This document shows positions 11,325-44,544 of a DNA stretch of 45,335 nt, piece after piece. Origin of the DNA: an uncultured Gammaproteobacteria bacterium (GTDB lineage Bacteria; Patescibacteriota; Microgenomatia; UBA1406; GWC2-37-13). The stretch is from positions 1 through 45,335 of the forward strand of contig CAZKKK010000001.1 in NCBI GenBank assembly GCA_964553365.1, in the 5' to 3' direction. The notes beneath the pieces were generated by a model. It did no database searches. It saw only the letters and a program-made list of their open reading frames with translations, and was not told the origin of the DNA. Within the stretch, counting starts at the first letter, position 1. Every line of letters begins with the position of its first letter. Position numbers and translations under genes: made by a program.

Positions 11325-12206
11325 ATGAAAACAAAAGGGTTTACTCTCATTGAATTGTTGATTGTGGTTGCACTGTTGGGAATCCTTTTGGTCGCGCTCC
11401 TTATCGCCCTCGATCCACTCGAACAAATAAGGAAGAGTCAGGACGTGAAAATGATCTCTGCTTCAAGAGAGATTTATGATTCTCTTTTTCGTTTTAACGC
11501 CAATACGGGCCAAGTTCCCTATGCTGCCGCCATTTCTGGGACTTCTCTTTCTTCAACTGAACCTCAGGACATGATCGTTAAGCTCATCAATAATGAAGAT
11601 TTGAAAAGTGATTTCAACCAGAGGGCTGGTGATATGCTGTCCGAGCTCTATTTCACCGGCAATGCAGATCTTTCGCAGCTTACCTTTTGTTTTATTCCCC
11701 AATCAAAAAGCTATAAAAGGAGCGGTGATACTCTCTATGACAAAATGGGGAATATAATCGACTGTTCGCAAAGCAGCTGCCATCTTTGTTTCGGCATTAA
11801 GTCATCAGTGTCGGAGGAAGGGTTATCCCTACCGGAGACCGTTCAAAATACCATTACACCGTCTGAACAATTGCCTTATTGTGAGGGGTTCGATTCAGAA
11901 AAACCTCAATACCCATGGACCTGCAACAACTCTTCCAAATGGAGCCAATATGGCTGCAGCAACTATTGCGTGGGGGATTTTGGGTGCGATTCCTTTTGCC
12001 CAGCTGGCCAAAGACACCTGAAGAAGAATTATTATGCTATCGGAAGTCCTGATTTTGAAAGATGCTTAAGTCGGTCTGGGGAAACATCTGAAGATTACTG
12101 TGTTTCAGGAATCGTTGCTCATTGTTCCGAAATGTCGTATCCGTCATCATCTTCGGACTTTCTGTGGGGATGCCTCAATCCAAGAAGACCTTACGCATGG
12201 AAGTAA
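11325..12206 (+). CDS. Type IV pilin / pseudopilin-like protein with a Cys-rich C-terminal domain
   Basis: MKTKG/FTLIELLIVVALLGILL is a textbook prepilin (class III) signal with the G-F-T-L-I-E cleavage/methylation motif. The C-terminal ~150 aa hold about 19 Cys. Confidence 0.85.
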   Translation: MKTKGFTLIELLIVVALLGILLVALLIALDPLEQIRKSQDVKMISASREIYDSLFRFNANTGQVPYAAAISGTSLSSTEPQDMIVKLINNEDLKSDFNQRAGDMLSELYFTGNADLSQLTFCFIPQSKSYKRSGDTLYDKMGNIIDCSQSSCHLCFGIKSSVSEEGLSLPETVQNTITPSEQLPYCEGFDSEKPQYPWTCNNSSKWSQYGCSNYCVGDFGCDSFCPAGQRHLKKNYYAIGSPDFERCLSRSGETSEDYCVSGIVAHCSEMSYPSSSSDFLWGCLNPRRPYAWK

Positions 12207-13286: not shown

Positions 13287-13598
13287 CTATATGATTCCTT
13301 GTCCTACTCCAAAAATATAGGCAAGCACTCTCGTAATAAAGAACGAAAGCACTAATAATACGAATCCAATGACTCCTGCGGTTATCTTTGCGTTCGCTCC
13401 CTTTAATTTTTCCGGTGAACCTTGAGAAGTCACATAATCGAAACCACCCCACATAAGGACAAAGAAAAGGATAATGCCTGCGATACTTATGACAAAGGGA
13501 ACCACATTATTGATGATATCTCCTATATTGGTAAAACCGACAAGAGGGTTACATATTCTTTGGCCACTCACAGTTATATATCCATTTGGACACGGCAT
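13287..13598 (-). CDS. Small two-TM pilin-like protein (TrbC/VirB2 or T4SS-pilin-like)
   Basis: It is a TM-loop-TM hairpin: VVPFVISIAGIILFFVLMWGGFDYVTSQGSPEKLKGANAKITAGVIGFVLLVLSFFI. The loop motif matches the C-terminus of the 23690..24436 protein. Confidence 0.6.
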   Translation of the reverse strand: MPCPNGYITVSGQRICNPLVGFTNIGDIINNVVPFVISIAGIILFFVLMWGGFDYVTSQGSPEKLKGANAKITAGVIGFVLLVLSFFITRVLAYIFGVGQGII

Positions 13599-14484: not shown

Positions 14485-17400
14485 TCACTTCTGTGGTTGC
14501 GTCCCGTCTGGAGTTGGTACTGGTTGCTCTTTTGGGATTTGCGCTTCTGGCTCTGGTTTTTTTTCATCCTTTTGAGGTGGTGTTACTGGTGCATCAATGT
14601 CAAACTGTTCTTGAACTTTACTTGAGCCACATGACGAACATATGATTGTTGCATTAGGCACCACTTCAGTGGTAAATCTCGCTGCACAGATATTACACAT
14701 ATATCTCTTCCCTTGCTTTTTCTCCTTCTTTTCAAGAAGGGTCGCTTTCTGTATATTGAAAACGAACTGTTGCCCATCAAAGTCGACCACTACTTCATCT
14801 CCTGGATTGGCTTTCTTCTCTATGATAAGGCCTGATATTGGATTTTCAACAATCCTCTGGATTGCGCGGCGAAGAGGTCTTGCACCAAACACTGGATCGA
14901 ATCCATTTCGTGCGATTTCCTTGATCGCTGCCTCGGTATATGCAAAGCCCATATCCTGGTCTTCCATGGATTTTTGGACTCCCTTGAGTTGTATTTTGGC
15001 GATTCGAGTCATATGTTCAAACCGAAGTGGTTCAAACATTATCACTTCATCAAAACGGTTTACCAGTTCAGGACGGAAAAACTTCAGCATTTCATTCATC
15101 ACTTTTTCCTTCAAGGAGGCAAACTTTTTCTTGAAGACCTCTTCATCGATCTTGTGTTTTTCTTCCACATGTTGATCGAGAGGAAGGTCTGAACCGAAAT
15201 ATTCATTTATCGATTTTGTCTTCCAAACAGTCTCACCTTGCGCTTTTGTCCATACCGACTGCCCAACCACTATCACTTCTACTCCGGAAGGAGAGAATGT
15301 ATGGATGTCCCAATATGCGACAGGCAATTGTCCTTTGTCAGCTGTCTGATCGACAAGATAATCCCGTAGAAACCCTGTCTGCCAATCACCCGTACTCAAC
15401 TTTCTTCTCCAAAACCGATCCTTATAGGTGACTATCTCTTGCTCATCGGGAGTGAAAGCATGTGTTTTCAGTGCGGCTGTAGGAAGCTGCTCATCAGGAG
15501 CATCGGGAAGAGCGTTTATTACGACTCCTTCCTTAAAATATGAAATAAGGTTTGAATGTTCCCATGTCTTTGCGGTAGTCGATGTCTTGAAAAAGACTTC
15601 TCCCGCTTTCGTGATCATTTCAATTCCAGTCGAGGACATCGCATGCGTATCGAATCCATGAAGGGGTAATTCGAGCTTTTCAGTTGATGGAGTCTGGGGA
15701 GCTACTTCTCCCTCTTTCGGTGCAACAACTGCAGCTTTCACTTCTTGACCCGCAAAATAATCTAGCAACATCTTTTCCGACCACTTCCCTTGAGATTCTT
15801 TTTCTAGGATTTTACTCCCTATGGTGAGAATCTCTCGTCCTCTTGGTGAGAATGTGTATGAAGTTATCGTTGATGGCTCTTCAATCTCAGTTTTTCCACC
15901 CTTCATCAACTCCTCCTGGATGATCTTTGATCCCAAGTTTGAAGTACAGATTACAACGGCATTCTTGAATGAAACGACATGTCCCTTGTTGTCGGTAAGT
16001 CGTCCATCATCCAATATCTGAAGGAGAATGTTAAAAATATCCGGATGAGCTTTTTCAACTTCATCGAAAAGTACGACACAGTATGGTTTTCTTCTTACCG
16101 CTTCCGTCAATTTTCCACCCTCTTCGTAGCCAACATATCCAGGAGGTGCCCCAAGAAGTTTGGCAACCTCATGTTTTTCCATATACTCCGTCATGTCGAA
16201 GCGAATCATCGCATCCTCGCTCCCAAATAGAATATCCGCGAGTGTCTTTGCTAATTCTGTTTTTCCAGTACCCGTAGGTCCCATGAATATAAACGATCCA
16301 ATAGGGCGATTTGCGGACTTCAAACCAGCTCTCCCTCTTCGAACCGCTTGGGCCACTGAGCTCACCGCTTCTTCTTGGCCGATAAGTCGTTGATGCATGA
16401 TATCTTCCAACTTCGCAAGCTTTTCAGTTTCACTTCCTGCAATCTTATTCACAGGAATGCCGGTCCAACGAGAAACTATGTCCTTAATCATGGAAACGGT
16501 CACTGCCGTTGTCGTTTGTGCTTTTTTGGTATTGAACTCATCTTTTTTTGTATTCAAGTCCCCTTCGATATCCGACAATTTTGATTTGATGATGCGCGCG
16601 CGTACGTTGTCTCCGGATTTCGTTGACTCCACCATTTCTTGATTTAGTTGTTTTATGCGCTCATCCAAAGACTTTATTTCCTCAGGAAGAGAAATGAGAG
16701 GAAGTCGTACCGCTGAAGCGGATTCATCGATCAAGTCTATTGCCTTATCGGGTAAGAATCGTTCTCCTACATAGCGTTTTGAAAGGCGGACTGCCGCCTC
16801 AACCGCATCATCTGGAATCTGGACACGATGGAAAGCTTCATATTTTCCCTTCAAAGCTTTAAGCATCTTTATTGCCTGCTCTTCTGTTGGCTCTGGAACG
16901 ACGACAGGTTGGAAACGTCTCTCAAGGGCTGGATCCTTCTCGATATACTTTCTGTATTCCGTTAAGGTAGTTGCTCCAATGATCTGCATCTCTCCTCTGG
17001 ACAGGCCTGGTTTCAATAAATTTCCAGCGTCTCCTGAACCCTCTCCGCCTGCGACGATATTGTGGATTTCATCAATGAAGAGAATTATCTGCCCTTTACT
17101 TGCCTTTACCTCATCGATGACGCCCTTCATGCGTTCTTCAAACTCACCCTTGTGTGAGGCACCCGCCATAACACTCATCAAATCCAAACCAAGAATTCTT
17201 TTGTTTAACAAAGGTTCCGGTACTTGTTTATTGACGATTTGTTGAGCTAAACCTTCAATTATTGCGGTTTTTCCAACTCCAGCCTCTCCAACCATTACTG
17301 GATTATTCTTACTTCTTCTCGAAAGGATATGAATAACTCGCTCAATTACTTGAGATCTCTCAATCACTGGATCGAGCAATCCCTGTGCGGCGCGTGCTGT

Positions 17401-18288
17401 GATATCGATGGTAAATTGGTCAAGTGAACTTTTTTTCTTTTCCGCTTCTTTTTGATCGGTCAATAGACCCTCTTTGTTTCCTGTGATCTTTTTATTTAGC
17501 TCTTCCTTTTTCAGTCCTAATTTTGCAAGTGCACGTGCGCCAATTCCTTCACCCTCTTCATATAACGCAAAAAGGATATGCTCTGGTGAAATAAACTCAA
17601 ATCCAAGTTTTCGGGCGATAATAAGAGAATTATCAATAATTCGTTTCAGTCGAGGAGACATTTGGGGTGGAACAAGTTTTGCAGGCTCACGTTTATACGT
17701 TTGGGCAAGTTCCGCCTCAATTTGTTGCGGTTGGACCTTCATTTCCATCAAAAGCTTATATATTTCTCCATCTGCGAGTAATCCGTGGAGCATGTGTTCA
17801 CTATCGATAAACGCACTTCCCATTTCCTTTGCTTTTGCCTGCGCTGTGACGAATACCCTATTGGATCGTTGCGTAAGATGTGTCATCAAATCCAAATCGG
17901 TTCTCTTTTGCGAATTCATCGTTGAGTTTAAAGATGCCCCTAAAGGTTTTGCAGGTGGGACTTGACCTGGTGCTTGCGGTTTGTCGCTCGCTGGACCAAC
18001 AGGTTTTACCGGTGGTTGACTATTCAACAACTCTTGGACCCTTACTTGTTCCGGTGTGAGTACTTTTTGGGGTGGAGCTCCAATACCGTTATAAGCCTGT
18101 CCTCCAGGTGGGTTTCCGATACCATTATATGAAGTTGTTTGAGGCCTTGTGACGGTCTGTTGAGGAATAACGACTCCTGGCTGTGTCATTGCAGGAGGCA
18201 TCTGTGATGGTGCTCCAGGAACTGGTGAAATCGAAGGAGTGCTTGCATTCGAGTTGTTATTTTTTATAAAATCAAAAAAGCCAGACAT
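14485..18288 (-). CDS. ClpC/ClpB-family double-ring AAA+ unfoldase with atypical extensions
   Basis: It has two Clp_N repeats (FIDSEHMLHGLL and FISPEHILFALY). D1 has Walker A GEAGVGKTAI and Walker B ILFIDEIH. The middle region is short, about 70 aa. D2 has Walker A GPTGTGKTELAKTLA, Walker B VVLFDEVEKAH and sensor-1 CTSNLGS. FRPELVNRFDEVIMF and GARPLRRAIQ follow. It also carries a P/Q/G-rich N-terminus, a ~240-aa insertion in D2 and a CxxC...CxxC tail. Confidence 0.93.
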   Translation of the reverse strand: MSGFFDFIKNNNSNASTPSISPVPGAPSQMPPAMTQPGVVIPQQTVTRPQTTSYNGIGNPPGGQAYNGIGAPPQKVLTPEQVRVQELLNSQPPVKPVGPASDKPQAPGQVPPAKPLGASLNSTMNSQKRTDLDLMTHLTQRSNRVFVTAQAKAKEMGSAFIDSEHMLHGLLADGEIYKLLMEMKVQPQQIEAELAQTYKREPAKLVPPQMSPRLKRIIDNSLIIARKLGFEFISPEHILFALYEEGEGIGARALAKLGLKKEELNKKITGNKEGLLTDQKEAEKKKSSLDQFTIDITARAAQGLLDPVIERSQVIERVIHILSRRSKNNPVMVGEAGVGKTAIIEGLAQQIVNKQVPEPLLNKRILGLDLMSVMAGASHKGEFEERMKGVIDEVKASKGQIILFIDEIHNIVAGGEGSGDAGNLLKPGLSRGEMQIIGATTLTEYRKYIEKDPALERRFQPVVVPEPTEEQAIKMLKALKGKYEAFHRVQIPDDAVEAAVRLSKRYVGERFLPDKAIDLIDESASAVRLPLISLPEEIKSLDERIKQLNQEMVESTKSGDNVRARIIKSKLSDIEGDLNTKKDEFNTKKAQTTTAVTVSMIKDIVSRWTGIPVNKIAGSETEKLAKLEDIMHQRLIGQEEAVSSVAQAVRRGRAGLKSANRPIGSFIFMGPTGTGKTELAKTLADILFGSEDAMIRFDMTEYMEKHEVAKLLGAPPGYVGYEEGGKLTEAVRRKPYCVVLFDEVEKAHPDIFNILLQILDDGRLTDNKGHVVSFKNAVVICTSNLGSKIIQEELMKGGKTEIEEPSTITSYTFSPRGREILTIGSKILEKESQGKWSEKMLLDYFAGQEVKAAVVAPKEGEVAPQTPSTEKLELPLHGFDTHAMSSTGIEMITKAGEVFFKTSTTAKTWEHSNLISYFKEGVVINALPDAPDEQLPTAALKTHAFTPDEQEIVTYKDRFWRRKLSTGDWQTGFLRDYLVDQTADKGQLPVAYWDIHTFSPSGVEVIVVGQSVWTKAQGETVWKTKSINEYFGSDLPLDQHVEEKHKIDEEVFKKKFASLKEKVMNEMLKFFRPELVNRFDEVIMFEPLRFEHMTRIAKIQLKGVQKSMEDQDMGFAYTEAAIKEIARNGFDPVFGARPLRRAIQRIVENPISGLIIEKKANPGDEVVVDFDGQQFVFNIQKATLLEKKEKKQGKRYMCNICAARFTTEVVPNATIICSSCGSSKVQEQFDIDAPVTPPQKDEKKPEPEAQIPKEQPVPTPDGTQPQK

Positions 18289-18327: not shown

Positions 18328-18910
18328 AATGATAAAAAAAATACTTCCTATCTCCATTTTCGTTCTTGTCTTTGTTTCCATTCTCCTCATTTGGTTCCAA
18401 AGCACCCTCAATAAGGGGGGTTCTGGTAACTCTTCCCTGACTCCTACTATAGTCCCAGGAAAACAAGGAAGTGGATATACTCCCCTTACCGGAAAGACTA
18501 CTGGTGGAAATGCTGTGAAACAACTCTCTCCAGAGGAACTGAAAAAGAAACTTCCCATCATCGCTCCGGATTTCACCCTTGATTATTCTCCTCGCATGCA
18601 AAGATATGTGGTTACTGAAACGGGAGAAGGAGCCGCTAATTCCTACAATGATTGGATTGAACAGAATCCTGCTGCCGCAAATGAGCTCCAGGGTGCCGTT
18701 GTTACCAAACAGACAGTGGAAGAGCTGAATGCGGTACTTGACAATGCAAAGAAGAATCAACAGACCCCAGAGGAAAAGGCAGTAGAAAAAGCCACTGCAT
18801 TTACCTCCACATTCAAAATGCTCAACAGTCTTCCTTACATACTCATGAATATCCCAACCCCTCAATCGTCATTGAATCCTACAACTCCTCCAAAAGCACC
18901 AAGTCCGACT
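18328..18910. repeat. Copy 1 of a 583-bp perfect direct repeat
   Basis: It is identical to 20213..20795. Identity was judged by direct reading of both boundaries and by identical translations in three overlapping frames of the supplied ORF track. Confidence 0.9.
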
Positions 18911-19624
18911 GAATCCATGTCTCCAACGCCGAATGAGACACAACCCACGAAAGCCACTTCACCAACTGCGTCCCCGACCATACCGAGCGGGTCCACGAGC
19001 AACATACTCCCTAATCCTCTACCTGCCATATCATCTAAGGCTTTGAGCTTTAAACAATCCATAGGGCCTTGCATTTCAAATAAATCTCTCTATGAAGTGG
19101 CGTCATCTAAAACCGGTATTCAATGGGAAATACTTGCCGCAATTCACTATAACGAAGGTGGATGCGGTCAGAATAGCTCATTAGTGAGCGGGCGCGCGAT
19201 CGGAACGAACGAACCAGATATCGTACGAGGTGGTGGTTGTAGTAGCGGGGTAAGTGGGGAGGGAATTCCTTATCCTCTTCCCGGTGGTGGGTGTGGTTTT
19301 AAGACTCTCCTAGACTCGGCGATTTATGCAGGGAATCACATAAAGGGCAAGATCGGGAAAGTCCCCTCCAACTTTCAGGAACTTGCGAAGGCGTTTACTC
19401 GTTATAACGGAGGGGGCAACTCTAACTGTGGAAAAACTCCTTATACTAATTGCCCACGATTGTATGAAGGAGAAGATGATCCCTACGTCATGAACTTCTT
19501 CGATAGCAAACATGAAACGATGTATCTTGTGTACTGCGCGGATTTGACAAAATGTAATCCACCTCGGTCCTATGTTCGCCCTGGGGCCGGCACCATTATT
19601 AGATTAGTTACTAACCAAATATGA
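18329..19624 (+). CDS. Secreted/anchored protein: shared N-module + PTS linker + lysozyme-like (lytic-transglycosylase-like) domain
   Basis: It has an N-terminal TM/signal (ILPISIFVLVFVSILLIWF), the 194-aa shared module and a Pro/Thr/Ser linker. The C-terminal domain has WEILAAIHYNEGG (candidate catalytic Glu) and FTRYNGGG, which resembles the A-Y-N-x-G motif of SLT-family transglycosylases. Several Cys are present. Confidence 0.7.
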   Translation: MIKKILPISIFVLVFVSILLIWFQSTLNKGGSGNSSLTPTIVPGKQGSGYTPLTGKTTGGNAVKQLSPEELKKKLPIIAPDFTLDYSPRMQRYVVTETGEGAANSYNDWIEQNPAAANELQGAVVTKQTVEELNAVLDNAKKNQQTPEEKAVEKATAFTSTFKMLNSLPYILMNIPTPQSSLNPTTPPKAPSPTESMSPTPNETQPTKATSPTASPTIPSGSTSNILPNPLPAISSKALSFKQSIGPCISNKSLYEVASSKTGIQWEILAAIHYNEGGCGQNSSLVSGRAIGTNEPDIVRGGGCSSGVSGEGIPYPLPGGGCGFKTLLDSAIYAGNHIKGKIGKVPSNFQELAKAFTRYNGGGNSNCGKTPYTNCPRLYEGEDDPYVMNFFDSKHETMYLVYCADLTKCNPPRSYVRPGAGTIIRLVTNQI

Positions 19625-20196
19625 ACTTTCTACAAAGCACCAAAAACAAGATTGTAGTATTTATATCTCTTTTTTTTCTTTTTGGAATTATATTCCTACT
19701 GTCAAAAAATACCTTCATTGAAACAAAAAAATCAAACAATATCTCTCCTACGAGCATAAACACCCAAAACAGCAGCGAAAAAAATCCTTCATATAAAAAA
19801 GGGGGTCTAATTCCTACCTATCCGCCCAAAGAAGGGAGTGGAGTGGATCTAAGGACTCCCTTAGTAACACAATCAATAATAGAAATCGAAAAATTATATT
19901 CCTCTCTTCCTTATGAGGTAACAATAAATACACCTTCAAACCAGGAAGTTTCCATTGTCATTCCAGATAAAACAGCACAAACAAATCCATGGACTCTCCA
20001 AGTCTATGTTTTTGGTCTAGATTATCAACTTGCCAAAAATGATCCAGAATATGCCTCAGCAAAAAATTCTTTCAAATATTCCGTCGCTTCTCTTTATAAA
20101 TGGATTGAGGAAAAAGGTGCAGATCCCAAAAAAATAATGATCATCTGGGGAGATAAAGAACTTATACAGAACAAGTCGCAAGAGTGGCTTGAATAA
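19621..20196 (+). CDS. Membrane-anchored hypothetical protein (partner of hydrolase 1)
   Basis: Its ATG overlaps the upstream stop (ATGA). It has an N-terminal TM (IVVFISLFFLFGIIFLL) and an extracytoplasmic domain of about 160 aa. Confidence 0.65.
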   Translation: MNFLQSTKNKIVVFISLFFLFGIIFLLSKNTFIETKKSNNISPTSINTQNSSEKNPSYKKGGLIPTYPPKEGSGVDLRTPLVTQSIIEIEKLYSSLPYEVTINTPSNQEVSIVIPDKTAQTNPWTLQVYVFGLDYQLAKNDPEYASAKNSFKYSVASLYKWIEEKGADPKKIMIIWGDKELIQNKSQEWLE

Positions 20197-20212
20197 TGTA
20201 GTATGAATATAT

Positions 20213-20795
20213 AATGATAAAAAAAATACTTCCTATCTCCATTTTCGTTCTTGTCTTTGTTTCCATTCTCCTCATTTGGTTCCAAAGCACCCTCAATAAG
20301 GGGGGTTCTGGTAACTCTTCCCTGACTCCTACTATAGTCCCAGGAAAACAAGGAAGTGGATATACTCCCCTTACCGGAAAGACTACTGGTGGAAATGCTG
20401 TGAAACAACTCTCTCCAGAGGAACTGAAAAAGAAACTTCCCATCATCGCTCCGGATTTCACCCTTGATTATTCTCCTCGCATGCAAAGATATGTGGTTAC
20501 TGAAACGGGAGAAGGAGCCGCTAATTCCTACAATGATTGGATTGAACAGAATCCTGCTGCCGCAAATGAGCTCCAGGGTGCCGTTGTTACCAAACAGACA
20601 GTGGAAGAGCTGAATGCGGTACTTGACAATGCAAAGAAGAATCAACAGACCCCAGAGGAAAAGGCAGTAGAAAAAGCCACTGCATTTACCTCCACATTCA
20701 AAATGCTCAACAGTCTTCCTTACATACTCATGAATATCCCAACCCCTCAATCGTCATTGAATCCTACAACTCCTCCAAAAGCACCAAGTCCGACT
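20213..20795. repeat. Copy 2 of the 583-bp perfect direct repeat
   Basis: It is identical to 18328..18910, with a period of 1885 nt. Confidence 0.9.
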
Positions 20796-21380
20796 AATGG
20801 AGCATCCAATCCTACACCGACCAAAGTAGCTTCCAATCCACCAGCTTCGGGAACTGGATATGTATATTACTCACAATGTAGTGGTCCATACGATGCGCTT
20901 CCACTTCCGAATGGATGCACTATTTGCTATGCCGGATGTGGACCGACAAGTGCTGCAATGCTACTTTCAACATTTATTGATAAATCCCTCACCCCTCCAA
21001 AAACGATCGACCTCATGGATAAAGCAGGTGTTCGTATTGGATGTTATGGCTCTTATGTATCAGAGATATACTCCTATTTGAAAAGAAGGGGTGATCTTAA
21101 AGTCACCGATTTCATAATTCCTTCTGAACAAGCCCTCTCTGCAAAAAGTGTTGCGAAGGACTTCAAAGGATACACAGACGCAGGATACGCAGTGTTCGTT
21201 CTTGCCAACTTTAAAGTGGGAAGTGGCGGCCATTATTTCCTGGTCACAGCCGTAAACGACAATGGAGATATTCTTGCTTACGACCCATACTACGGAAAAC
21301 AACAAACCCCCCCTATAAATGAAAATAGATATGCACCAGCACCGTATTATCGTTATGCATTTGCCGTAAAAAAATCATGA
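20214..21380 (+). CDS. Secreted/anchored protein: shared N-module + linker + C39-like papain-fold cysteine peptidase
   Basis: It carries the same 194-aa N-module. The C-terminal domain has YYSQ (oxyanion Gln), AGCGPTSAAMLL (nucleophile Cys context typical of Peptidase_C39_2), GSGGHYFLVTAV (His) and LAYDPY (Asp). Confidence 0.78.
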   Translation: MIKKILPISIFVLVFVSILLIWFQSTLNKGGSGNSSLTPTIVPGKQGSGYTPLTGKTTGGNAVKQLSPEELKKKLPIIAPDFTLDYSPRMQRYVVTETGEGAANSYNDWIEQNPAAANELQGAVVTKQTVEELNAVLDNAKKNQQTPEEKAVEKATAFTSTFKMLNSLPYILMNIPTPQSSLNPTTPPKAPSPTNGASNPTPTKVASNPPASGTGYVYYSQCSGPYDALPLPNGCTICYAGCGPTSAAMLLSTFIDKSLTPPKTIDLMDKAGVRIGCYGSYVSEIYSYLKRRGDLKVTDFIIPSEQALSAKSVAKDFKGYTDAGYAVFVLANFKVGSGGHYFLVTAVNDNGDILAYDPYYGKQQTPPINENRYAPAPYYRYAFAVKKS

Positions 21381-21847
21381 TCCCAAAATCAATAATTAAA
21401 TTCTATTTAGTGCCCGGTGTTATTGTGTTAGTGATAATCATTTTGGTGCTCATCATTCCTTTAGGGAAAAAGAAGGAGACAATCCAAACTCCATCACCAA
21501 CTTCCGAGACCCCAGTAAACATCTCAATTACCAAGGCTGTTTCTCGCCCTCTGACTCCATCTTCAGCAAATAAAATCTCCCCCACCCTTATTCCCATTCC
21601 AGACTTTACTGGTGCCGAGGCAAATCAAGAACTTCCCCCTGACATAAAGATATTGGGGGAACAAAAAACGACACTTCGCAGGCTTACCCCCCTCACGCTT
21701 CCTTTTGCGGTAATAAACTTTGATTATGAGAACGATATGTTTGTAGTACTCCTATCAGAACCGAAAGACCAAAGCAGGGTACAATTCAATGCCTGGAGAG
21801 ATCAAAATTATTCCGCCTTAACGGACTCTAAATTTGTATTCAATTGA
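21377..21847 (+). CDS. Membrane-anchored hypothetical protein (partner of hydrolase 2)
   Basis: Its ATG overlaps the upstream stop (ATGA). It has an N-terminal TM (LVPGVIVLVIIILVLII) and a PTS linker. The C-terminal ~55 aa resemble part of the shared N-module. Confidence 0.65.
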   Translation: MIPKSIIKFYLVPGVIVLVIIILVLIIPLGKKKETIQTPSPTSETPVNISITKAVSRPLTPSSANKISPTLIPIPDFTGAEANQELPPDIKILGEQKTTLRRLTPLTLPFAVINFDYENDMFVVLLSEPKDQSRVQFNAWRDQNYSALTDSKFVFN

Positions 21848-21919: not shown

Positions 21920-23602
21920 ATGCCTCGTGTATTTACCTCAGGAATTGATTTCATTAAAAAAGCAATTTTGGTAGTGGTGGTCTACTATATAGTTTTCTCC
22001 ATATTTGGCAACGTAATCAATAGGAATCGTCCTCAAATTGATGATAAGGTTATTATTGCCGCCCAACAAAAAGAAATGTATAAGGTGTTGGACAACAATA
22101 AATTGAGTCAAACCAAGGCTGGGAAGATTTCGATAGCTCTCTATCGATTTACTAATTGTGCATTTATAGGAGAGCTTTGCACAGACAAGCCGATTGCGGA
22201 TGATAGCTACTTCAAATCAAGCCTCTTGGGTAAAATGTCATCGCTGATAGCACTTCCGTATCAAAATCCCCCGGCCTCAGGTGCCTATTGGGTAGCTGAC
22301 ACTCTTCAAAAAGCCGGCTTTATACCCGCCTCATATGCGGCAGAGGGTCTTGGGTATTCTTCATTGAAGCCTCTCATAAATATATGGAAAATTTTTCGTG
22401 ATGTTTCCTATCTCCTTATTGTCCTCATACTCGTCTCTATTGGATTTATGATTATGTTCCGCATGAAACTCAATCCTCAAACGGTTATATCAGTAGAAAA
22501 TGCACTCCCAAAGATAGTCGTCGCATTACTTCTCATTACTTTTTCATTCGCGATAGCGGGTTTCTTAATCGATATTACATATCTCCTCATACTTCTTTCC
22601 ATAAATCTTCTCAGTACCGGGGACGTGTATGTCAAAGTCCAAAACCAACTTCTTAATTCGAACTTGGGAACGTTGTGGGACTATATTCTCCCTAAAAATG
22701 GAACACTACTCGACCCAGTGTCTCGAGTATTTTATTTGGGCGATGCATTCGCTGCATTATTACCGAATGAAATAAATAATGCAGTTAAGATTCTGTCAGG
22801 TGGAGCTATTCTCTATTTTGTAGGAGCCTCCATGGTGAGAAAAGTCGAAGGAACGGGATTAGTAGCGTTTTTAAATGGCATAAACATTATAGGAAATGGT
22901 GTGGGAAATCTTTTTCAGGGGATAATTGGCACTATTGTGACTTTGGTGATTTATTCAAGTCTAGGTATAATGGCCGCAAATGGGCTTGGACTTATTTTTG
23001 GGATAATCGTCTTCCTTACTTTCACAAGTATATTGTTCACTATTTTCTTTCTCCTATTCCGATCTTATTTGCAAATTATCCTCATGATTGTTTTTGCCCC
23101 GGTTATCTTGCTCCTTGAAGCTGTGCCGGGAAAATCTACTTTCGGTTATTGGATTAAAGGGTTAATTGGAGAACTTATTACATTCCCAGTCGTTATTACG
23201 ATGCTCTTGGTGGGAAAAATGATGACGACCACCTTATCATATCCAGGTGACTATTGGAAAGCTCCATTTATTGGAAATCTGAATACCACAGGGTTTGGAG
23301 TAATAATGGGAGCTGGATTGATTTTTCTTATCCCCGACATTGTTAAACTAGTCAAAGATGGACTTGGAGTGAAGCCTCTTCCATTTAATCTTGGTGTCGG
23401 CACCTTTCTTGGTGGTGCTGGAGTACTGGGAGGAGGAGCTATGGGTATCTTGCAGCAATTTAGTACCTTGAATATGGGTATGGCTGCATTTGGAGATCAG
23501 GGTATCATTTCAAAATTACGAGGTAAGGGTGAGATTCCAAAAGAAAAAGCAAAGACTCCAGCTGTTACAACGGGTGTCGTTGTCCCAGGTCAGCCAACAT
23601 AA
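21920..23602 (+). CDS. Large polytopic integral membrane protein (possible VirB6/TrbL-like channel component, speculative)
   Basis: It is 560 aa. An N-terminal TM and an extracytoplasmic loop of about 130 aa come first. At least 8-10 hydrophobic helices and a Gly-rich C-terminal region (GVGTFLGGAGVLGGGAMG) follow. No catalytic motif was recognised. Confidence 0.7.
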   Translation: MPRVFTSGIDFIKKAILVVVVYYIVFSIFGNVINRNRPQIDDKVIIAAQQKEMYKVLDNNKLSQTKAGKISIALYRFTNCAFIGELCTDKPIADDSYFKSSLLGKMSSLIALPYQNPPASGAYWVADTLQKAGFIPASYAAEGLGYSSLKPLINIWKIFRDVSYLLIVLILVSIGFMIMFRMKLNPQTVISVENALPKIVVALLLITFSFAIAGFLIDITYLLILLSINLLSTGDVYVKVQNQLLNSNLGTLWDYILPKNGTLLDPVSRVFYLGDAFAALLPNEINNAVKILSGGAILYFVGASMVRKVEGTGLVAFLNGINIIGNGVGNLFQGIIGTIVTLVIYSSLGIMAANGLGLIFGIIVFLTFTSILFTIFFLLFRSYLQIILMIVFAPVILLLEAVPGKSTFGYWIKGLIGELITFPVVITMLLVGKMMTTTLSYPGDYWKAPFIGNLNTTGFGVIMGAGLIFLIPDIVKLVKDGLGVKPLPFNLGVGTFLGGAGVLGGGAMGILQQFSTLNMGMAAFGDQGIISKLRGKGEIPKEKAKTPAVTTGVVVPGQPT

Positions 23603-23689: not shown

Positions 23690-24436
23690 TTAACTGAATC
23701 CTGGTATCTTAAGTATATCGACTCCAATTATCTTAAGGATGAGCACTGAAAAAATGATAACCATGAGTCCCGTGATACAATTTGTCATCATCTCCTGAGC
23801 CTTCTTCACCTTCTCGGCGTTCCCAGCTGATGTTTGCATTTGAAACGCAGCAAGCATGATGCAGAGCATAGAAATACCCCCCGCAAGCCCTATCCCGGTC
23901 CTCATTATATTATTTGCGATAAAGTCCCCAATGTTCCCGTTAAAGCATCCCAAAGCAGTCCATGCACCTGATTTGTTATGTGAACAGTCTATGCAGAGCG
24001 TTTGTTCTGAAGGTGATTTGATATTTTGACACAAAGGCTCCAAAGCGGAAAGTGGCTCCGCTGGGGGTTCGATAATGCAGACGCATCCTGCATCTGCCTG
24101 CGGCCCACTTGGCGTCCCTTCTGCACACGCTTTTACTACTATCGACTTCTGTTGCTGGATCAATTCATTTGTGACTTTGTCAGTGAGTGGTTGAAGGATA
24201 TCTCGACCTGCATTAAGAACAATATTGTTGTAGTCAATGGTCCCCGGCTTAATGATGGGAGATTTACAGCATTTTTGAAAATCCCCCGTTCTATTGGGAT
24301 CTCCACAATTTATACCCGGTTGAGGAGCATCTGTAACGCCAACCACCTGGGAATAGGAGGTCTTCTGCGTAATTACCAGTACCGTAATGACGAATAATAT
24401 CGCCAATATTTTTCTTACCATATATTTACTATACAC
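23690..24436 (-). CDS. Secreted Cys-rich protein with a C-terminal two-TM pilin-like (TrbC/VirB2 or T4SS-pilin-like) module
   Basis: It has a signal peptide (ILAILFVITVLVITQKTSYSQ) and an ectodomain of about 150 aa with about 12 Cys. These are followed by GIGLAGGISMLCIMLAAFQMQTSAGNAEKVKKAQEMMTNCITGLMVIIFSVLILKIIG. Confidence 0.7.
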   Translation of the reverse strand: MYSKYMVRKILAILFVITVLVITQKTSYSQVVGVTDAPQPGINCGDPNRTGDFQKCCKSPIIKPGTIDYNNIVLNAGRDILQPLTDKVTNELIQQQKSIVVKACAEGTPSGPQADAGCVCIIEPPAEPLSALEPLCQNIKSPSEQTLCIDCSHNKSGAWTALGCFNGNIGDFIANNIMRTGIGLAGGISMLCIMLAAFQMQTSAGNAEKVKKAQEMMTNCITGLMVIIFSVLILKIIGVDILKIPGFS

Positions 24437-24442
24437 TAATGA

Positions 24443-27400
24443 TTACTTCTTTTTTCCTTCAGAATTTTCAAAAGCCTTTTTAATTTGAGCTATCAAAATG
24501 AAAAGAAGGAATGCAGGGAGATATTTATTAAGGATATCAAAGAACATATCGTTTTTTGTTCCTCCGAATTTTTCCCTAAGCGATTTGGACCACACCGCAT
24601 GATTGCGTTTTCTTTTCCAGAAAAGCGGAACGTCGGGAATCGTAAACTCTTTATCAATTCCGGGTATTTTAAATTTACCCGTCTTTGAATCTCCCCCGAG
24701 TAATCCTGCGAGTTTTGAAGTTGATATTTTTTCCGGCATCTTCATGGGCTTTTTCAAAAAAGGCAGTGTCAAATATACCGGTTCTTTTTCTGGCTCTGAT
24801 GCAATATTGTATGGCGTCCCTGGAACAAGGTTTCGCGCTTCAAGAGCGGTGATAAAGCGATCAATATCGGAACTGTCCCACTCCCACACTCCCGTTTTCC
24901 TATGAACGCTCTCTGCCGCCATTGAATTGAACCGCCCTATTCCGAATGCACCCATCATCGCCCGCGCTTGTGTGTCTTTTTTCATATACATTATCGTCAT
25001 TGACGCTAAGTTTGAGGCAAGTTCATTTGCATAAGGAAATCCAATGATGCCATCCATCGCGCCCCACACTTTTTGGATGATCTCAATCACGGGGCCGAAA
25101 TCCTTCTTACCGTTTATTGCCATGTCGCGCAGAGTTTTCACTAACTGAGTGATAGGTTCCGAAACGCCTTTTTCAACGGCTGCGACGTCTCGGAGAGATC
25201 TTGCAAGTACGCTTTCTCCTCCTCCTCGGAAGGGGATGAAACTCATATCCGTTTCGTCCAATGCAATAGTATATTTTGATTTGCGTTCTTGTGCACCTCC
25301 ATGTTTGAAAAAAGGGACAAGGTCTACATCGACAAATTCCTTTCCCTTATTGGGCCCAGTTGTATACTTGAAATCGATATAATTGCTTTGGATGTGACCG
25401 AATAATTTCAAAACATTGTTAAGTCGCGTCTGGTCCATCTTCCCTTTTGCGATAAGAGGACCAAGGAGGGCTTTGATTGTGTCTGGATTCATTTCATAAT
25501 CTATTTCTCCATATTTCCACTCTTCTCCCGGCTTCCCACTATCACGTTTTATATACATTTGTCTACTCACGTCTCTCCGCAGCATTTGTTCAGCCAAGAG
25601 CATGTCTGTCATGATGTTGTCGAATTTGTCAGACTCTCCCTCAAGACCCATATCTTTCATCACTTTTTTATACCTACTCGTTCCGTCGGGGGAAAGCCTA
25701 TCACGATCCATGCGGATTATTTTGCTCGGCAAACGCTTCACGATGACGCGCGCAAGCATCCGATCTAAAAATTCGAATGATGCTGCCGCTTCCACTTCTC
25801 CCTCAATATCGTCCGGGGCGCTCAGACCGCTGCGGACTTTCCCTAGGACTTCATTCCTCTTCGCATCACGGATCTTATCCATGTATTTACCCAGGTCTTT
25901 TGGATCTTTATCGAAATATTTTTCAAATATATACTTAAATAAAGCATCTTTTTGTTCATACAGTGCTGATTGCTCTTTACTCATTCCAAAAGTACTCCGA
26001 GCTTTTAAAAGATCATCATCCCCTGCTTTTGGATGTGGACCAAGCTTGGTAACATAATCCTGCAAAAGTTCATAACCGATATTCTCTAAATGTTGAAAAG
26101 TTTTCAAATGGTTTGTTTTGACATAACTTTGTCCTTTTTCATTTGTTACTTTATCGCTGATATAAAGACTATCAAGTTGCCATGCAGTACGCCAACCCTT
26201 GCGCTGCATAGGACCTCCCACTAGACCAATATTGTTAAGCTTATCGAAGAATGTCTGTTCAGGGAGCGGCTCTCGCCCTTTAATGAAGGATGCCTTATAT
26301 TTCTCTGCCTTATCCCACAGCGCGTGATGGTCGGTAAATGCCTGACTCCCTTTAAAACTGTCAACGGGGAGGAAAAAGATTGGATCAAGAAGATTTGGTC
26401 CTCCCGCGAAACGAGCCAAGAGGTGTTGGGGATTAAAAGCCATGAGAGCAGTAGCATCCTGGTGATAATAGCTTGTGAATGTGGATCCTCCCGTCTCATT
26501 CAGATGGGGATCTGCATGGGCAGCCATCTCAACCTCAGTGAGAAACATTCCACGTGAAGCTCCAACAGCCATAGTAAGAGCGGCGGTAAGCCGTTCCTCT
26601 GAAGCATCTCCAAACATCGCACTTAGTTGCTCCAAAACCCGACCTTCGATTTGGGTGGTGTGCTTATTCAGTTGTGCTGTAAACATTCCAGCCGAGTGTC
26701 GCCAATCATTTTTCGCGAAGCCCTCTTCAATCATTTTGTTATACAAACCAAAAGCACTCTGAAAAATATCATTATCGGGCAACAACATCATCTGATCGAA
26801 GTCCAACATCGATGTCTCTGCTGCGAATTTTGCAAGTTGACCATAAAATCCTGTCTGGGCATCAACCGGATGAAGAAAGACCGCGCGGGAATTATGAGTA
26901 TATCTTCGAGCTTCGATATAATGATCAACGATTTGATCTAGGTAATGTGCAAAATGCGAGCCGCTCGCCTCTTCTGCTTCCAACTTGGTTCTAAATCGGG
27001 GACGTGGTTTAAGGCTCCCTTTGACATTGACTGAAACGGTTTCCGTATCCTGCTCCAACCGTTGGAAAAACTTCGGAGCTTCTTTTCCGCTTTTTTCAAG
27101 TTCTACCTGATACGGTGCTAAGCTCGTTCCCAGGAGAGTAATGCGGCGTTTGAGCTCGCTTTTTACCGGAGTGATACCCTTCATGATATCCTCTTGTTCG
27201 ATGCTCTGGAAAAACTCCTTCGGGCTTTCATGATCTAGCCTTGTATACAACTTCGCGAACAAAAGAGATATCTTCACTTCCATTTGCTCCGAAGCCTTTT
27301 GGGCTATCTTTGTTTTATCGAGGCTCGGATCTTTTTTTATTTCTTCTGCTTGGATCTTTTCGTAATAATCGACAAACTTAGCGGGGGAATACAACGCTTT

Positions 27401-28168
27401 TACCAAATCTTTTTCTGCCCCTTCATTGAAATGACCCGAAAAAATATGCTCCCAATTTTGATTGAATGCCGATTCTGCGGATCTCTCTTCCATTGCTCTT
27501 CTTTGGGATTCTTCATTTTGAACCATGTCTGTGCTTACTTCTTGAACACCAAACATCTTATTTGCATCCTTTTCTGCAATATTATTTTCTTTTGCATATT
27601 CAACGCCTGCTTTTTGAATTTTTCCAAATACATCGGCTGAGGCAGAATCAAAGTTTGCAACGGGAGCAATCTTCCGCACTTCTTCCGCGAGATTATCTAC
27701 TCCCACTTTCCCCTCGGTGATCGACTTCAATAGATCATAAAAATACGGAGCATTTTGATCGTTGATTTCTTCTAATCGTATATGGGAGCTTATTTTCTGA
27801 AGAAGCTTAGTGCTCTCAGGAGTGGGGATAGGAGCCTTTGGATCTTTCGGTGTGGGTTTATCAGCTGCAGGTATTTTTTCAGGAGTATTTCGTGCGGCAT
27901 AAAACATTTTTTGGATAAGCTCCGTTATTGAGTTTGCCTTCCCCCGCTCTGTTCCCGTATCATTCTTATCTCCCGATCCAAAATCATGTTGTCGTTTATT
28001 ATTTTGAATAAGATCGATCTCTATATTTTGCTTTATATCTGTCACCCATTTTCCCAGTCTCACAAATTCTTCCTTCAACTGCTCGGCAGATTGAGCTTTC
28101 ACTTTCTGCTCAATTTTCTGTTCAACAGCTGATGAGCCCGAATTGTTTTCCACAGAATTCTCTGCCAT
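24443..28168 (-). CDS. Giant (1241 aa) hypothetical protein, predicted tail-anchored
   Basis: It is a single uninterrupted ORF with no signal peptide and no P-loop (no GxxxxGK[ST]). The only hydrophobic helix is at the extreme C-terminus (YLPAFLLFILIAQI). It ends 6 nt upstream of the pilin-like gene. Confidence 0.8.
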   Translation of the reverse strand: MAENSVENNSGSSAVEQKIEQKVKAQSAEQLKEEFVRLGKWVTDIKQNIEIDLIQNNKRQHDFGSGDKNDTGTERGKANSITELIQKMFYAARNTPEKIPAADKPTPKDPKAPIPTPESTKLLQKISSHIRLEEINDQNAPYFYDLLKSITEGKVGVDNLAEEVRKIAPVANFDSASADVFGKIQKAGVEYAKENNIAEKDANKMFGVQEVSTDMVQNEESQRRAMEERSAESAFNQNWEHIFSGHFNEGAEKDLVKALYSPAKFVDYYEKIQAEEIKKDPSLDKTKIAQKASEQMEVKISLLFAKLYTRLDHESPKEFFQSIEQEDIMKGITPVKSELKRRITLLGTSLAPYQVELEKSGKEAPKFFQRLEQDTETVSVNVKGSLKPRPRFRTKLEAEEASGSHFAHYLDQIVDHYIEARRYTHNSRAVFLHPVDAQTGFYGQLAKFAAETSMLDFDQMMLLPDNDIFQSAFGLYNKMIEEGFAKNDWRHSAGMFTAQLNKHTTQIEGRVLEQLSAMFGDASEERLTAALTMAVGASRGMFLTEVEMAAHADPHLNETGGSTFTSYYHQDATALMAFNPQHLLARFAGGPNLLDPIFFLPVDSFKGSQAFTDHHALWDKAEKYKASFIKGREPLPEQTFFDKLNNIGLVGGPMQRKGWRTAWQLDSLYISDKVTNEKGQSYVKTNHLKTFQHLENIGYELLQDYVTKLGPHPKAGDDDLLKARSTFGMSKEQSALYEQKDALFKYIFEKYFDKDPKDLGKYMDKIRDAKRNEVLGKVRSGLSAPDDIEGEVEAAASFEFLDRMLARVIVKRLPSKIIRMDRDRLSPDGTSRYKKVMKDMGLEGESDKFDNIMTDMLLAEQMLRRDVSRQMYIKRDSGKPGEEWKYGEIDYEMNPDTIKALLGPLIAKGKMDQTRLNNVLKLFGHIQSNYIDFKYTTGPNKGKEFVDVDLVPFFKHGGAQERKSKYTIALDETDMSFIPFRGGGESVLARSLRDVAAVEKGVSEPITQLVKTLRDMAINGKKDFGPVIEIIQKVWGAMDGIIGFPYANELASNLASMTIMYMKKDTQARAMMGAFGIGRFNSMAAESVHRKTGVWEWDSSDIDRFITALEARNLVPGTPYNIASEPEKEPVYLTLPFLKKPMKMPEKISTSKLAGLLGGDSKTGKFKIPGIDKEFTIPDVPLFWKRKRNHAVWSKSLREKFGGTKNDMFFDILNKYLPAFLLFILIAQIKKAFENSEGKKK

Positions 28169-42249: not shown

Positions 42250-43272
42250 ATGTCAACACATACACCTGCAGCAAAACCAGAAGAGAAAAAAAGCCAAAAA
42301 ACACAGGCTGTCGACTTAGCGATTGAACAAATTCAAAGAGAGTTTGGAAAAGGATCTATCATGCGTCTTGGTCAAGCCCCTTCTTCTTCTATTGATGCCC
42401 TTAAAACAGGTGTTATCCCTCTCGACTTTGCCCTTGGCATTGGGGGGATTCCAAAAGGAAGAATTATTGAGATATTTGGTCCCGAATCTTCAGGTAAAAC
42501 AACTGTTTGTCTTTCCCTTATCGCGGAATGCCAGAAAATCGGTGGTACCGCAGCATTCATTGACGCAGAACACGCAATTGATCCGGCATGGGCTAAAACG
42601 CTTGGCGTTCAACTCGATGATTTGCTTGTTTCTCAACCAGATACAGGAGAACAAGCTCTTGAAATCACTGAGTCTCTTATTCGCTCCGGGGGAGTCGACT
42701 TGGTGGTTGTAGATTCCGTTGCAGCACTTGTTCCAAAAGCGGAAATCGAGGGCGATATGGGAGATGCACAGATGGGTCTCCAAGCCCGCCTTATGTCCCA
42801 AGCCCTGCGAAAACTAGCGGGAGTCCTTTCCAAATCGAAGACAACCATCGTATTTACGAATCAACTTCGTATGAAGATCGGTATCATGTTCGGAAATCCC
42901 GAAACGACACCAGGAGGTATGGCTCTTAAATTCTATGCATCAATCCGAATGGATGTGCGAAAAATCGAGACATTGAAAAAAGGAACAGAAGTGATTGGCA
43001 CTCGTGTCCGCGTGAAGATCGTGAAAAACAAAATGGCTCCTCCTTTCAAGTTGGCTGAATTTACCATTAATGCACAAGGCATCGACAAACTCGAAAGCGT
43101 CATCGACACCGGACTTGAATGCGGAATCCTTACCAGAAGTGGTTCATTCATCAAATACCAGGATAAAATGTTGGGTCAGGGCAAAGAACAGGTAAAAGAT
43201 TTACTTATGCAAGATGAAAAACTGAAACATGCCCTCATAAAGGCAGTGGAGCAAAAAGTGTTTAAAAAGTAA
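42250..43272 (+). CDS. recA: Recombinase RecA
   Basis: [19 protein letters not shown]-type N-terminus, Walker [20 protein letters not shown]-type motif and [17 protein letters not shown]. Confidence 0.97.
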
Positions 43273-43324: not shown

Positions 43325-44080
43325 ATGAATCAATATATTAAGATTTTCAATCCCTCAAGGGAGAAGCTCGATACTCTTGTTGAAGGAAATGAAAAAAGCC
43401 CGATTTCTATTGTTATGGTTCATGGCCTCGGAACCGATAAACATGAGACAGGGGGGCAGTTTGATTTCATCGCAAAATCCCTCTCTGAAAATTATCGAGT
43501 GGTTCGATTTGACTTCTCGGGATTTGGGAAAAGTGAAGGAAAAATGGAAGACTTTGATTATGTAAAACATGCAGACGATTTGAAGGCGGTACTCAGCTAC
43601 TCGAAAAAAACCTATGGAGGAACTGTCTATATCATTGCTCAATCAATGGGGTGTTTTGTCACTTCTCTTCTTAATCCTCAAGGTATAAATAAAACAATTT
43701 TTTTGGGAATTCCCAATTCAAATACTGAATATATCATTAATCGATTTTCTAAGAGATTTTCTTCAAAACCGGGAGGCGTAGTTAATTTCGAAGGAATAAG
43801 TCTCGTACCCCGTTCAACTGGAGCAATTCAACATATTGGTCCTTCATTCTGGAAGGTTTTGAGAGAGTTTAACCCTGTAAAAGCGGTGGCTGAATTTTCA
43901 AAAAAAACCCATCTCCTCATTGTTCATCCCCTTCAAGATGATGTTGTTGGGCCTGAATTTCAAAAAGAATATGATGCAATCCCAAACATAAAAATTGAAT
44001 GGATTAATGGGGATCATTCATTCAAAAAAAGAGAAGACCGCAGTGCTCTTATTAAAACTATAAAAACTTTTCTTACCTAA
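43325..44080 (+). CDS. Alpha/beta-fold hydrolase
   Basis: It has the HG oxyanion motif (VMVHGLG), the nucleophile elbow IIAQSMGCF, a late Asp (HPLQDDVV) and His (INGDHSF). I chose the start at MNQYIKIF (43325). The track start at 43274 would translate through the hairpin. Confidence 0.8.
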   Translation: MNQYIKIFNPSREKLDTLVEGNEKSPISIVMVHGLGTDKHETGGQFDFIAKSLSENYRVVRFDFSGFGKSEGKMEDFDYVKHADDLKAVLSYSKKTYGGTVYIIAQSMGCFVTSLLNPQGINKTIFLGIPNSNTEYIINRFSKRFSSKPGGVVNFEGISLVPRSTGAIQHIGPSFWKVLREFNPVKAVAEFSKKTHLLIVHPLQDDVVGPEFQKEYDAIPNIKIEWINGDHSFKKREDRSALIKTIKTFLT

Positions 44081-44544
44081 TGGAAAAAGCATTGTCCCTT
44101 GCCTATCGCTATCTTTCATTCCGTCCCCGCAGTGTCGGTGAGGTTGAAAAATACCTGGAAAAGAAATCAGAGAAATATACAATTTCTTCAGGAGATATAC
44201 AGGCAACCTTGGAACTCCTTAAAGATCAGGGATATTTGAATGATGGCGAGTTTATTAAGTCGTTTGTCGAATCCCGAAATCTGCTTAAGCCAAAAAGCGA
44301 ACGGGTATTAGGAATGGAATTGAGGAAACTGGGCGTTTCTCAAGAGGATATCGATTCCTATTTTTCTGAAAATACAACGGACGAGATCGATTTGGCACAA
44401 AAAGCGTTACGGAAAAAAATGAAGTCCCTTTTACTCATTGTGGATGAGAGAAAACGATTCATAAAAGCGATCACCTTCCTCCAAAGAAGGGGGTTTTCAT
44501 ACGATATAGCAAAGCAAACTTATTTGCATCTCCTCTCGAAATAG
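44080..44544 (+). CDS. recX: RecA regulator RecX
   Basis: ALSLAYRYLSFRPRSVGEVEKYLEKK together with the repeated three-helix pattern. Its ATG overlaps the upstream TAA by 1 nt. Confidence 0.85.
   Translation: MEKALSLAYRYLSFRPRSVGEVEKYLEKKSEKYTISSGDIQATLELLKDQGYLNDGEFIKSFVESRNLLKPKSERVLGMELRKLGVSQEDIDSYFSENTTDEIDLAQKALRKKMKSLLLIVDERKRFIKAITFLQRRGFSYDIAKQTYLHLLSK

Follow-up and report, generated by a model that had tools for sequence, protein, structure and literature searches.

The stretch of DNA analyzed here, 45,335 nucleotides (nt) of contig CAZKKK010000001.1 (the window), contains two genes, termed gene A and gene B, that share a nucleotide-identical 5' portion. This portion, the N-module, is present as copy 1 in gene A and as copy 2 in gene B. 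The repeat copies and the open reading frames (ORFs) around them, with protein lengths in amino acids (aa), are as follows.

18328..18910, + strand: repeat copy 1, comprising 1 nt plus codons 1-194 of gene A; exact 583-nt match to copy 2.
18329..19624, + strand: gene A, 431 aa, in the ORF list; N-module, Pro/Thr (PT) linker (~aa 178-222), and a domain termed X (~aa 223-431).
19621..20196, + strand: 191-aa protein with a single transmembrane (TM) segment; its start overlaps the stop of gene A by 4 nt.
20213..20795, + strand: repeat copy 2, comprising 1 nt plus codons 1-194 of gene B; exact 583-nt match to copy 1.
20214..21380, + strand: gene B, 388 aa, in the ORF list; N-module, PT linker, and a Peptidase_C39_2-like domain (PF13529; aa 217-359).
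21377..21847, + strand: 156-aa single-TM protein; its start overlaps the stop of gene B by 4 nt.

An earlier note on this DNA had reported a perfect 583-bp direct repeat with a period of 1885 nt. Exact match extension recovered this repeat: in the assembled sequence, 18328-18910 and 20213-20795 were identical over 583 nt with 0 mismatches, in direct orientation and 1885 nt (~1.9 kb) apart from start to start, and a repeat search returned the same pair. The self-alignment contained no scattered substitutions, and by the rule of three, 0 differences in 583 nt correspond to a divergence below ~0.5%. The repeat starts 1 nt upstream of each ATG and ends after codon 194 within a Pro/Ser/Thr linker (..PPKAPSPT), exactly where its abrupt limits had been placed. 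The flanks, described as unrelated, dropped to chance-level identity at once on both sides (3-12 matches per 30 nt, examined over 300 nt beyond each end). No other exact repeat of at least 25 nt, direct or inverted, was found in the 45,335-nt window, in line with the claim of a single long repeat. The ORF list likewise agreed with the note in giving both sense ORFs (431 aa and 388 aa) the same first 194 aa and in containing antisense ORFs that translate identically.

The two genes had been called adjacent hydrolase genes. The pair itself stands, and both genes are plausibly hydrolases, as the C39_2 match lies above the Pfam cut-off and the X domain is weakly lysozyme-like by fold; strict adjacency does not hold, as the 191-aa gene (19621-20196) lies between them. 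The term "C39-headed" was also loose; a C39-like domain is indeed present in gene B, but at the C-terminal end. In BLASTP comparisons, the C-terminal domains of genes A and B were unrelated, and so were the small proteins encoded downstream of each gene. Therefore, the two cassettes are not plain tandem duplicates of one whole unit.

Related loci were found in the following contigs, in which N::X and N::C39 denote an N-module fused ahead of an X or a C39-like domain and ClpB is the counterpart of a ClpB-like gene divergent from gene A.

L002: JGI contig of 24 kb from an independent assembly, syntenic with the window gene for gene.
L034: a different contig and organism, with gene A, a 192-aa protein, gene B, a 149-aa protein, a 539-aa protein, and a pilin.
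L016: 1.4 kb, covering the unique sequence that separates two copies and ending 100 nt into copy 2; the copies are partial.
L035: the small gene and N::C39; one module copy on the contig.
L003: ClpB, N::X, and the small gene, ending in junction 2; one module copy on the contig.
L001: a single 1.7-kb Logan contig with ClpB, junction 1, the N-module, and the C39 domain, lacking the A cassette.
L032, L033, and L036 (Roizmanbacteria metagenome-assembled genome): more distant, with ClpB and N::C39 only, i.e., one cassette at the ClpB site.
L004/L015, L017, and L018: Roizmanbacteria-type contigs, with an N-like::X plus small-gene cassette located elsewhere.

The comparison of related loci that the earlier note had proposed thus yielded the tandem layout in L002 and L034 and a single-gene layout in L001. 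Junction 1, from the ClpB intergenic region into copy 1, was conserved in L001, L002, and L003. Junction 2, composed of the stop of the small gene followed by TGTACTATGAATATATAG and then copy 2, aligned across lineages; in the window, the small-gene stop is followed by TGTAGTATGAATATATA, and this junction was orthologous to those of L002, L034, L016, L035, and L003. Junction alignments accordingly identified two unique junctions that are orthologous among the window, L001, L002, L003, L016, L034, and L035. Because both junctions are orthologous across these lineages, the layout predates them. An orthologue of the 191-aa gene followed the X gene in L002, L003, L004/L015, L016, L017, L018, L034, and L035.

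We compared the divergence of the N-module with that of the surrounding genes. Between the window and L002, synonymous sites were saturated. The nonsynonymous divergence (dN) was 0.086 for ClpB, 0.13 for X, and 0.16 for C39, and it was 0.45 for the N-module, 0.47 for the 156-aa protein, 0.63 for the pilin-like protein, and 0.67 for a 560-aa protein encoded farther downstream. By dN, the catalytic domains act as ordinary orthologues. The dN of the N-module is three times that of the catalytic domains and close to that of the neighboring membrane and pilin genes (0.47-0.67). The nucleotide identity of N-modules between genomes was 52-62% (54% between the window and L002), whereas within a genome it was 100% in the window, 100% in L034, and 86.6% in L002 (81 differences overall). 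In a neighbor-joining tree, the N-modules paired by genome (W_A with W_B, L002_A with L002_B, and L034_A with L034_B) and not by catalytic domain.

The two copies in L002 form a mosaic, with an exact tract beside older divergence within the module. They are identical over a 259-nt tract whose first base lies 2 nt upstream of the ATG, with a synonymous divergence (dS) of 0.03 over 88 codons; past this tract, nucleotide identity is ~78%, with a dS of 1.13 and a dN of 0.14 over 102 codons. In L034, the exact repeat covers at least 634 nt, being cut by the start of the contig, and ends in the PT linker. The two modules of this old pair are far closer to each other than to their orthologues, and the tract is mosaic in one lineage and full-length in the other two. 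From this pattern, it is very probable that the repeat is genuine, that the segment has existed in two copies since ancient times, and that concerted evolution by recurrent gene conversion within the chromosome keeps the copies identical. Ongoing gene conversion had been one of the options listed in the earlier note, and it is the one favored by the shared layout at saturated divergence, the within-genome identity, and the mosaic in L002.

In the mechanism we propose, the host would be an uncultured, ultra-small, Microgenomates/Roizmanbacteria-like bacterium of the Candidate Phyla Radiation (CPR) with two membrane-anchored cell-wall hydrolases encoded in a pilin-associated envelope cluster. 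Both hydrolases would use one type of N-module, with homology that begins at the start codon and extends as far as the Pro/Thr linker. Given this homology, and with the modules arranged as direct repeats at a distance of 1.9 kb, RecA-dependent recombination between the copies could repeatedly overwrite one by the other. In the window genome, the most recent tract would have taken in all of the homologous sequence, reaching from 1 nt upstream of the ATG through codon 194. Its abrupt ends would correspond to the limits of homology, set on the 5' side by the promoter region of ClpB (copy 1) or the junction with the small gene (copy 2) and on the 3' side by the unrelated linkers and catalytic domains. 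The window contains genes for homologous recombination, recA (42250..43272, + strand; PF00154, E 3.6e-130) and, after it, recX (44080-44544; RecX domains), whose products constitute machinery able to perform conversion or deletion between the copies.

The context of the start codon suggests a direction of conversion. Copy 1 begins with ATGATA in L001 and L003, and copy 2 begins with ATGATC in L035. In the window, both copies begin with ATGATA, and the ~11 nt found before copy 2 in the others are missing; these two features suggest a putative conversion from A to B. Both copies begin with ATGATC in L002 and L034, and L002 retains a remnant ATGAT with an 11-nt insertion ahead of copy 1, which suggests the reverse direction, from B to A, in these two genomes. 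As for the history of the locus, gene B beside ClpB is likely ancestral, and the A cassette was then likely inserted between ClpB and gene B. This insertion possibly occurred via N-module homology, of which no trace was found; a comparison of junction 2 with the sequences bordering the A cassette where it stands alone in the Roizmanbacteria contigs revealed no similarity. Conversion, with occasional deletion, has likely operated since then.

A selective rationale can also be considered. The N-module may be a docking adaptor to a fast-evolving partner in a pilin-associated envelope machine of these epibiont-like CPR bacteria, in which case conversion would let both enzymes track that partner and would not be neutral. 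We regard this module matching as doubtful. The alternative is a neutral one, in which conversion simply works efficiently when direct repeats are near each other, and the data do not discriminate between the two. If module matching were true, the same repeats would also offer lineages a route to loss of the lysozyme cassette, as seen in L001.

Several points weigh against the account of recurrent conversion and its extensions. When short-read metagenome assemblers pop bubbles, near-identical copies can lose a few of their true differences. Both copies were present on one contig in three genomes only (the window, L002, and L034). The directions of conversion, A to B in the window and B to A in L002 and L034, are ones that we infer from start contexts, and so is the shared docking partner from the pattern of divergence as a selective rationale. 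Profile and Foldseek searches with the N-module found no sequence or structural relative with a known function. In addition, no VirB4, type IV coupling protein (T4CP), or other secretion ATPase was found among the window ORFs scanned, which bears on the identity of the presumed machine.

An assembly artefact, which the earlier note had taken as its null hypothesis, would explain the repeat either as a chimeric join of strains via the 583-bp segment or as similar copies collapsed to one consensus that was written twice. The window looks like a metagenome-derived CPR contig, the 583-bp repeat is longer than short reads, the contigs of relatives break at the module, and exact-protein look-ups with genes A and B gave no record of either product elsewhere. 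Against this, all four junctions (ClpB to N-module, N-module to X linker, small gene to N-module, and N-module to C39 linker) have orthologues in independent assemblies, and the L002 copies, with their 81 differences, can be assembled without ambiguity. Collapse of a repeat cannot produce the pattern in L002, because the tract there is exact for 259 nt and is followed by a dS of 1.13. As far as the layout is concerned, we therefore consider an artefact unlikely, whereas the true identity of the copies might be, for example, 98-99% and not 100%.

A programmed or selected recombination switch ("head-swapping" or phase variation), in which the repeats would enable deletion or exchange of the lysozyme-like cassette and leave subpopulations with one or two hydrolases, would involve the loss of the 1885 bp between the copies. 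The deletion product that the earlier note had predicted, with ClpB and N::C39, does exist as the layout of L001, the closest relative found (85% aa identity to the window in the ClpB N terminus and 86% in the C39 segment), and junction 1 is intact there; we infer that unequal crossover between the copies gave rise to it. However, any direct repeat is expected to give rise to deletions, and as these are irreversible, they do not constitute a switch; in addition, no site-specific recombinase or invertible element was found nearby in the ORFs scanned. L001 is moreover a lone 1.7-kb contig whose linker includes an in-frame TAG, and either a decaying gene or collapse during assembly could account for it. 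A switch is accordingly very unlikely.

A very recent segmental duplication of the N-module or of the whole cassette, with no time to diverge, agrees with the 0 differences over 583 nt, and L032, L033, and L036, with one cassette at the ClpB site, indicate that some insertion did occur; this option of the earlier note is nevertheless rejected as highly improbable, as the tandem layout is ancestral, with both junctions common to lineages at saturated synonymous divergence, the old part of the L002 module (dS 1.13) beside its homogenized part requires an old duplication followed by conversion, and independent events with the same boundaries in three lineages are implausible.

With regard to L001, the in-frame TAG lies at 1418-1420 in the linker of its N::C39 gene, and the reading frame stays open beyond it and enters the C39 domain. 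A nonsense mutation, an error in the reads, or a split gene could explain this TAG.

Concerted evolution by RecA-dependent recombination is classically known from tufA/tufB, rRNA operons, and the opa/pil loci of Neisseria, and Santoyo and Romero reportedly reviewed concerted evolution of bacterial paralogues by gene conversion in 2005. The repeat described here resembles these cases in a within-genome similarity that exceeds that between orthologues, in sharp ends at the limits of homology, in mosaic tracts, and in the presence of recA. It differs in being confined to one N-terminal module of two enzymes with unrelated catalytic domains, in being located in a CPR/Patescibacteria genome, and in the lack of antigenic-variation donor cassettes. 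The phenomenon is a further example of a well-known process and involves no new mechanism. No paper on peptidoglycan hydrolases undergoing concerted evolution was found in a literature search. The locus provides a clean case of domain-restricted concerted evolution in the CPR, whose recombination biology is, to our knowledge, almost unstudied. What is new here is the undescribed N-module together with a Cys-rich, probably lysozyme-like family absent from Pfam, both in CPR bacteria.

The N-module comprises a signal-anchor TM helix, a disordered stretch, a small alpha/beta domain, a long helix, and the start of the PT linker. In an AlphaFold 2 model, a helix spans aa 6-27 and the folded part spans aa 63-175, with a predicted local distance difference test (pLDDT) score of ~90. 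The model suggests a membrane anchor followed by an orphan alpha/beta domain of ~110 aa. A Foldseek search for structural relatives of the N-module gave nothing credible (best E 0.46, probability at most 0.14). A word-indexed homology search with the N-module recovered one protein, despite the existence of relatives, and an exhaustive HMMER profile search was required; it gave 33 matches at E<=1e-3 in 1.84 billion representative proteins. The N-module is thus both undescribed and rare. Among the HMMER matches, it is fused ahead of X, C39_2, CHAP, or Peptidase_M15_4 domains and at times occurs as two tandem copies. Because of these fusions, we regard it as an accessory module of wall hydrolases, one that serves several classes of such enzymes in the CPR. 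Pneumococcal choline-binding proteins and phage lysins are modular wall hydrolases that share a targeting module. One accessory module is joined to different catalytic domains in both cases; the module described here is, unlike theirs, N-terminal, membrane-anchored, non-repetitive, rare, and without a known ligand.

The small protein downstream of gene B is weakly similar to the core of the N-module. When the window ORFs were searched with a broadened N-module hidden Markov model (HMM), the 156-aa protein scored E 0.006; the 191-aa protein scored E 0.18 only. A motif resembling the N-module core, LP..F.i.Y...d.fVV....d....F..W...N, was observed in the 156-aa protein and also at 3727-4170 of L036.

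The X domain of gene A had no match in Pfam, NCBIfam, or PDB sequence searches, including no lysozyme or SLT profile, and no curated family covering it was found. Its homologues form 70 clusters, every one of which comes from CPR-type metagenome bins (Parcubacteria, Woesebacteria, and Roizmanbacteria), and a few carry the JGI name "lysozyme family protein." The domain is Cys-rich, and its family is widespread in CPR bacteria. In an AlphaFold model of gene A built from 69 sequences, the X domain had a pLDDT above 95. The top 50 Foldseek matches in PDB were nearly all g-type lysozymes, MltC/E/F, or FlgJ, with weak scores (best E 0.019, probability 0.97, TM score 0.47). A glutamate, E276 (AAIHYNEGG), is kept in at least 90% of the 69 X sequences and is a candidate catalytic residue. 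Judging from the model, X is probably a divergent lysozyme-like glycosidase. We also observed six nearly invariant cysteines in the family (C304, C322, C367, C375, C403, and C409; window 19004-19621), along with invariant Y255, H273, and D297; as far as can be read from sequence, these residues fit a disulfide-stabilized extracytoplasmic enzyme. An X-like domain in L007 lies within a 792-aa protein amid glycosyltransferases and is uninformative on a link to type IV secretion systems (T4SS) via Saccharibacteria.

Gene B matched PF13529 over profile positions 4-143 of 143, with E 2.5e-9 and 38.3 bits (cut-off 24). Cys242 (GCGP), His340 (GGHYF), and Asp357 were invariant across 15 gene B homologues and are the putative catalytic residues.

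The neighboring genes run in the order ClpB-like (-), gene A, the 191-aa TM protein, gene B, the 156-aa TM protein, a 560-aa polytopic protein, a pilin-like protein (-), a 1241-aa orphan (-), KhpB/Jag, YidC, and LeuRS; upstream of ClpB are the genes for RecF and for another, more clearly VirB2-type pilin. The features not listed above are as follows.

13287-13598: second, stronger VirB2-type pilin gene (E 7.8e-10).
14485..18288, - strand: ClpB-like AAA+ gene, 1267 aa, divergent from gene A.
21920..23602, + strand: 560-aa polytopic membrane protein, syntenic in L002, L032, L033, and L034.
23690..24436, - strand: VirB2-type (T4SS_pilin-like) membrane protein, a conserved neighbor (PF18895, E 9.2e-5, below the cut-off; NF045849, E 0.0024).
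24443..28168, - strand: 1241-aa orphan protein, conserved in position.

The 1241-aa and 560-aa proteins had no Pfam, NCBIfam, or PDB match; they occupy the same position in all relatives, yet share only 23% and 37% aa identity, respectively, with their counterparts in L002. Near the VirB2-type pilin genes, we also noted a gene (11325-12206, + strand) whose 293-aa product bears a type IV pilin-like methylation motif (PF07963) at its N terminus; pilins of two types are thus encoded in a 12-kb region. Of T4SS-type genes, the window ORFs scanned contained just the two for VirB2-type pilin-like proteins. Because no VirB4 or coupling protein was detected among these ORFs, we refer to the locus as a pilin-associated envelope cluster and not as a T4SS.

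According to a recent survey of T4SS in Patescibacteria (PMC12102498), monoderm VirB1 proteins, such as PrgK of pCF10 and TraG of pIP501, combine an N-terminal TM segment with SLT/muramidase (transglycosylase) and CHAP peptidase domains, and VirB2-like pilins are widespread. The cluster described here has in common with PrgK and TraG a TM anchor, lysozyme-like and cysteine-peptidase activities (predicted here), and nearby genes for pilin- or channel-like membrane proteins. It differs in that the activities are divided between two polypeptides, both of which carry the anchor module, whereas theirs reside in one polypeptide. In addition, the peptidase is C39_2-like and not CHAP, the glycosidase has no SLT profile match, and VirB4 and T4CP were not found in the window. 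In "Ca. Southlakia epibionticum," peptidase and lysozyme homologues beside virB4 are reported to be essential for epibiotic growth (cited in PMC12102498). By description, that pair resembles ours as a peptidase and lysozyme-like pair with T4SS-type genes in Patescibacteria; no shared or identical N-terminal module is reported for that pair. The muramidase plus cysteine-peptidase logic of Gram-positive secretion and conjugation hydrolases thus appears to be split here over two genes with a common anchor.

The 40-nt intergenic region next to ClpB constitutes the unique 5' flank of copy 1. It contains a promoter-like sequence, TTGACA-17-CATAAT (11/12; minus strand, 18325-18297), which faces ClpB and is the best such site in the region; in a scan for promoters and terminators, the counts were no different from those in shuffled sequence. 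The -35 box, within the GTTGTCAACA block, is conserved in the window, L001, L002, L003, and L036. It stops 3 nt short of the gene A ATG and marks the 5' limit of the repeat.

In independent assemblies of several relatives, contig ends fell at or inside the N-module. The contig of L034 (1-634) begins where the repeat begins, that of L018 (1-1103), 170 kb in length, begins in the middle of the module, and L016 is bounded by both copies. These ends suggest that near-identical copies of the module break assemblies in several of these genomes, in which the repeat is both an assembly hazard and a deletion hotspot.

The ClpB-like protein was itself unusual. At 1267 aa it is unusually long, with a P/Q-rich N-terminal extension, a ~280-aa insertion between AAA_2 and D2-small that seemingly contains repeated "T..FSP.G.E.." units, and a zinc-ribbon-like CxxC...CxxC C-terminal tail. 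The extension, the insertion, and the tail are all kept in L002.

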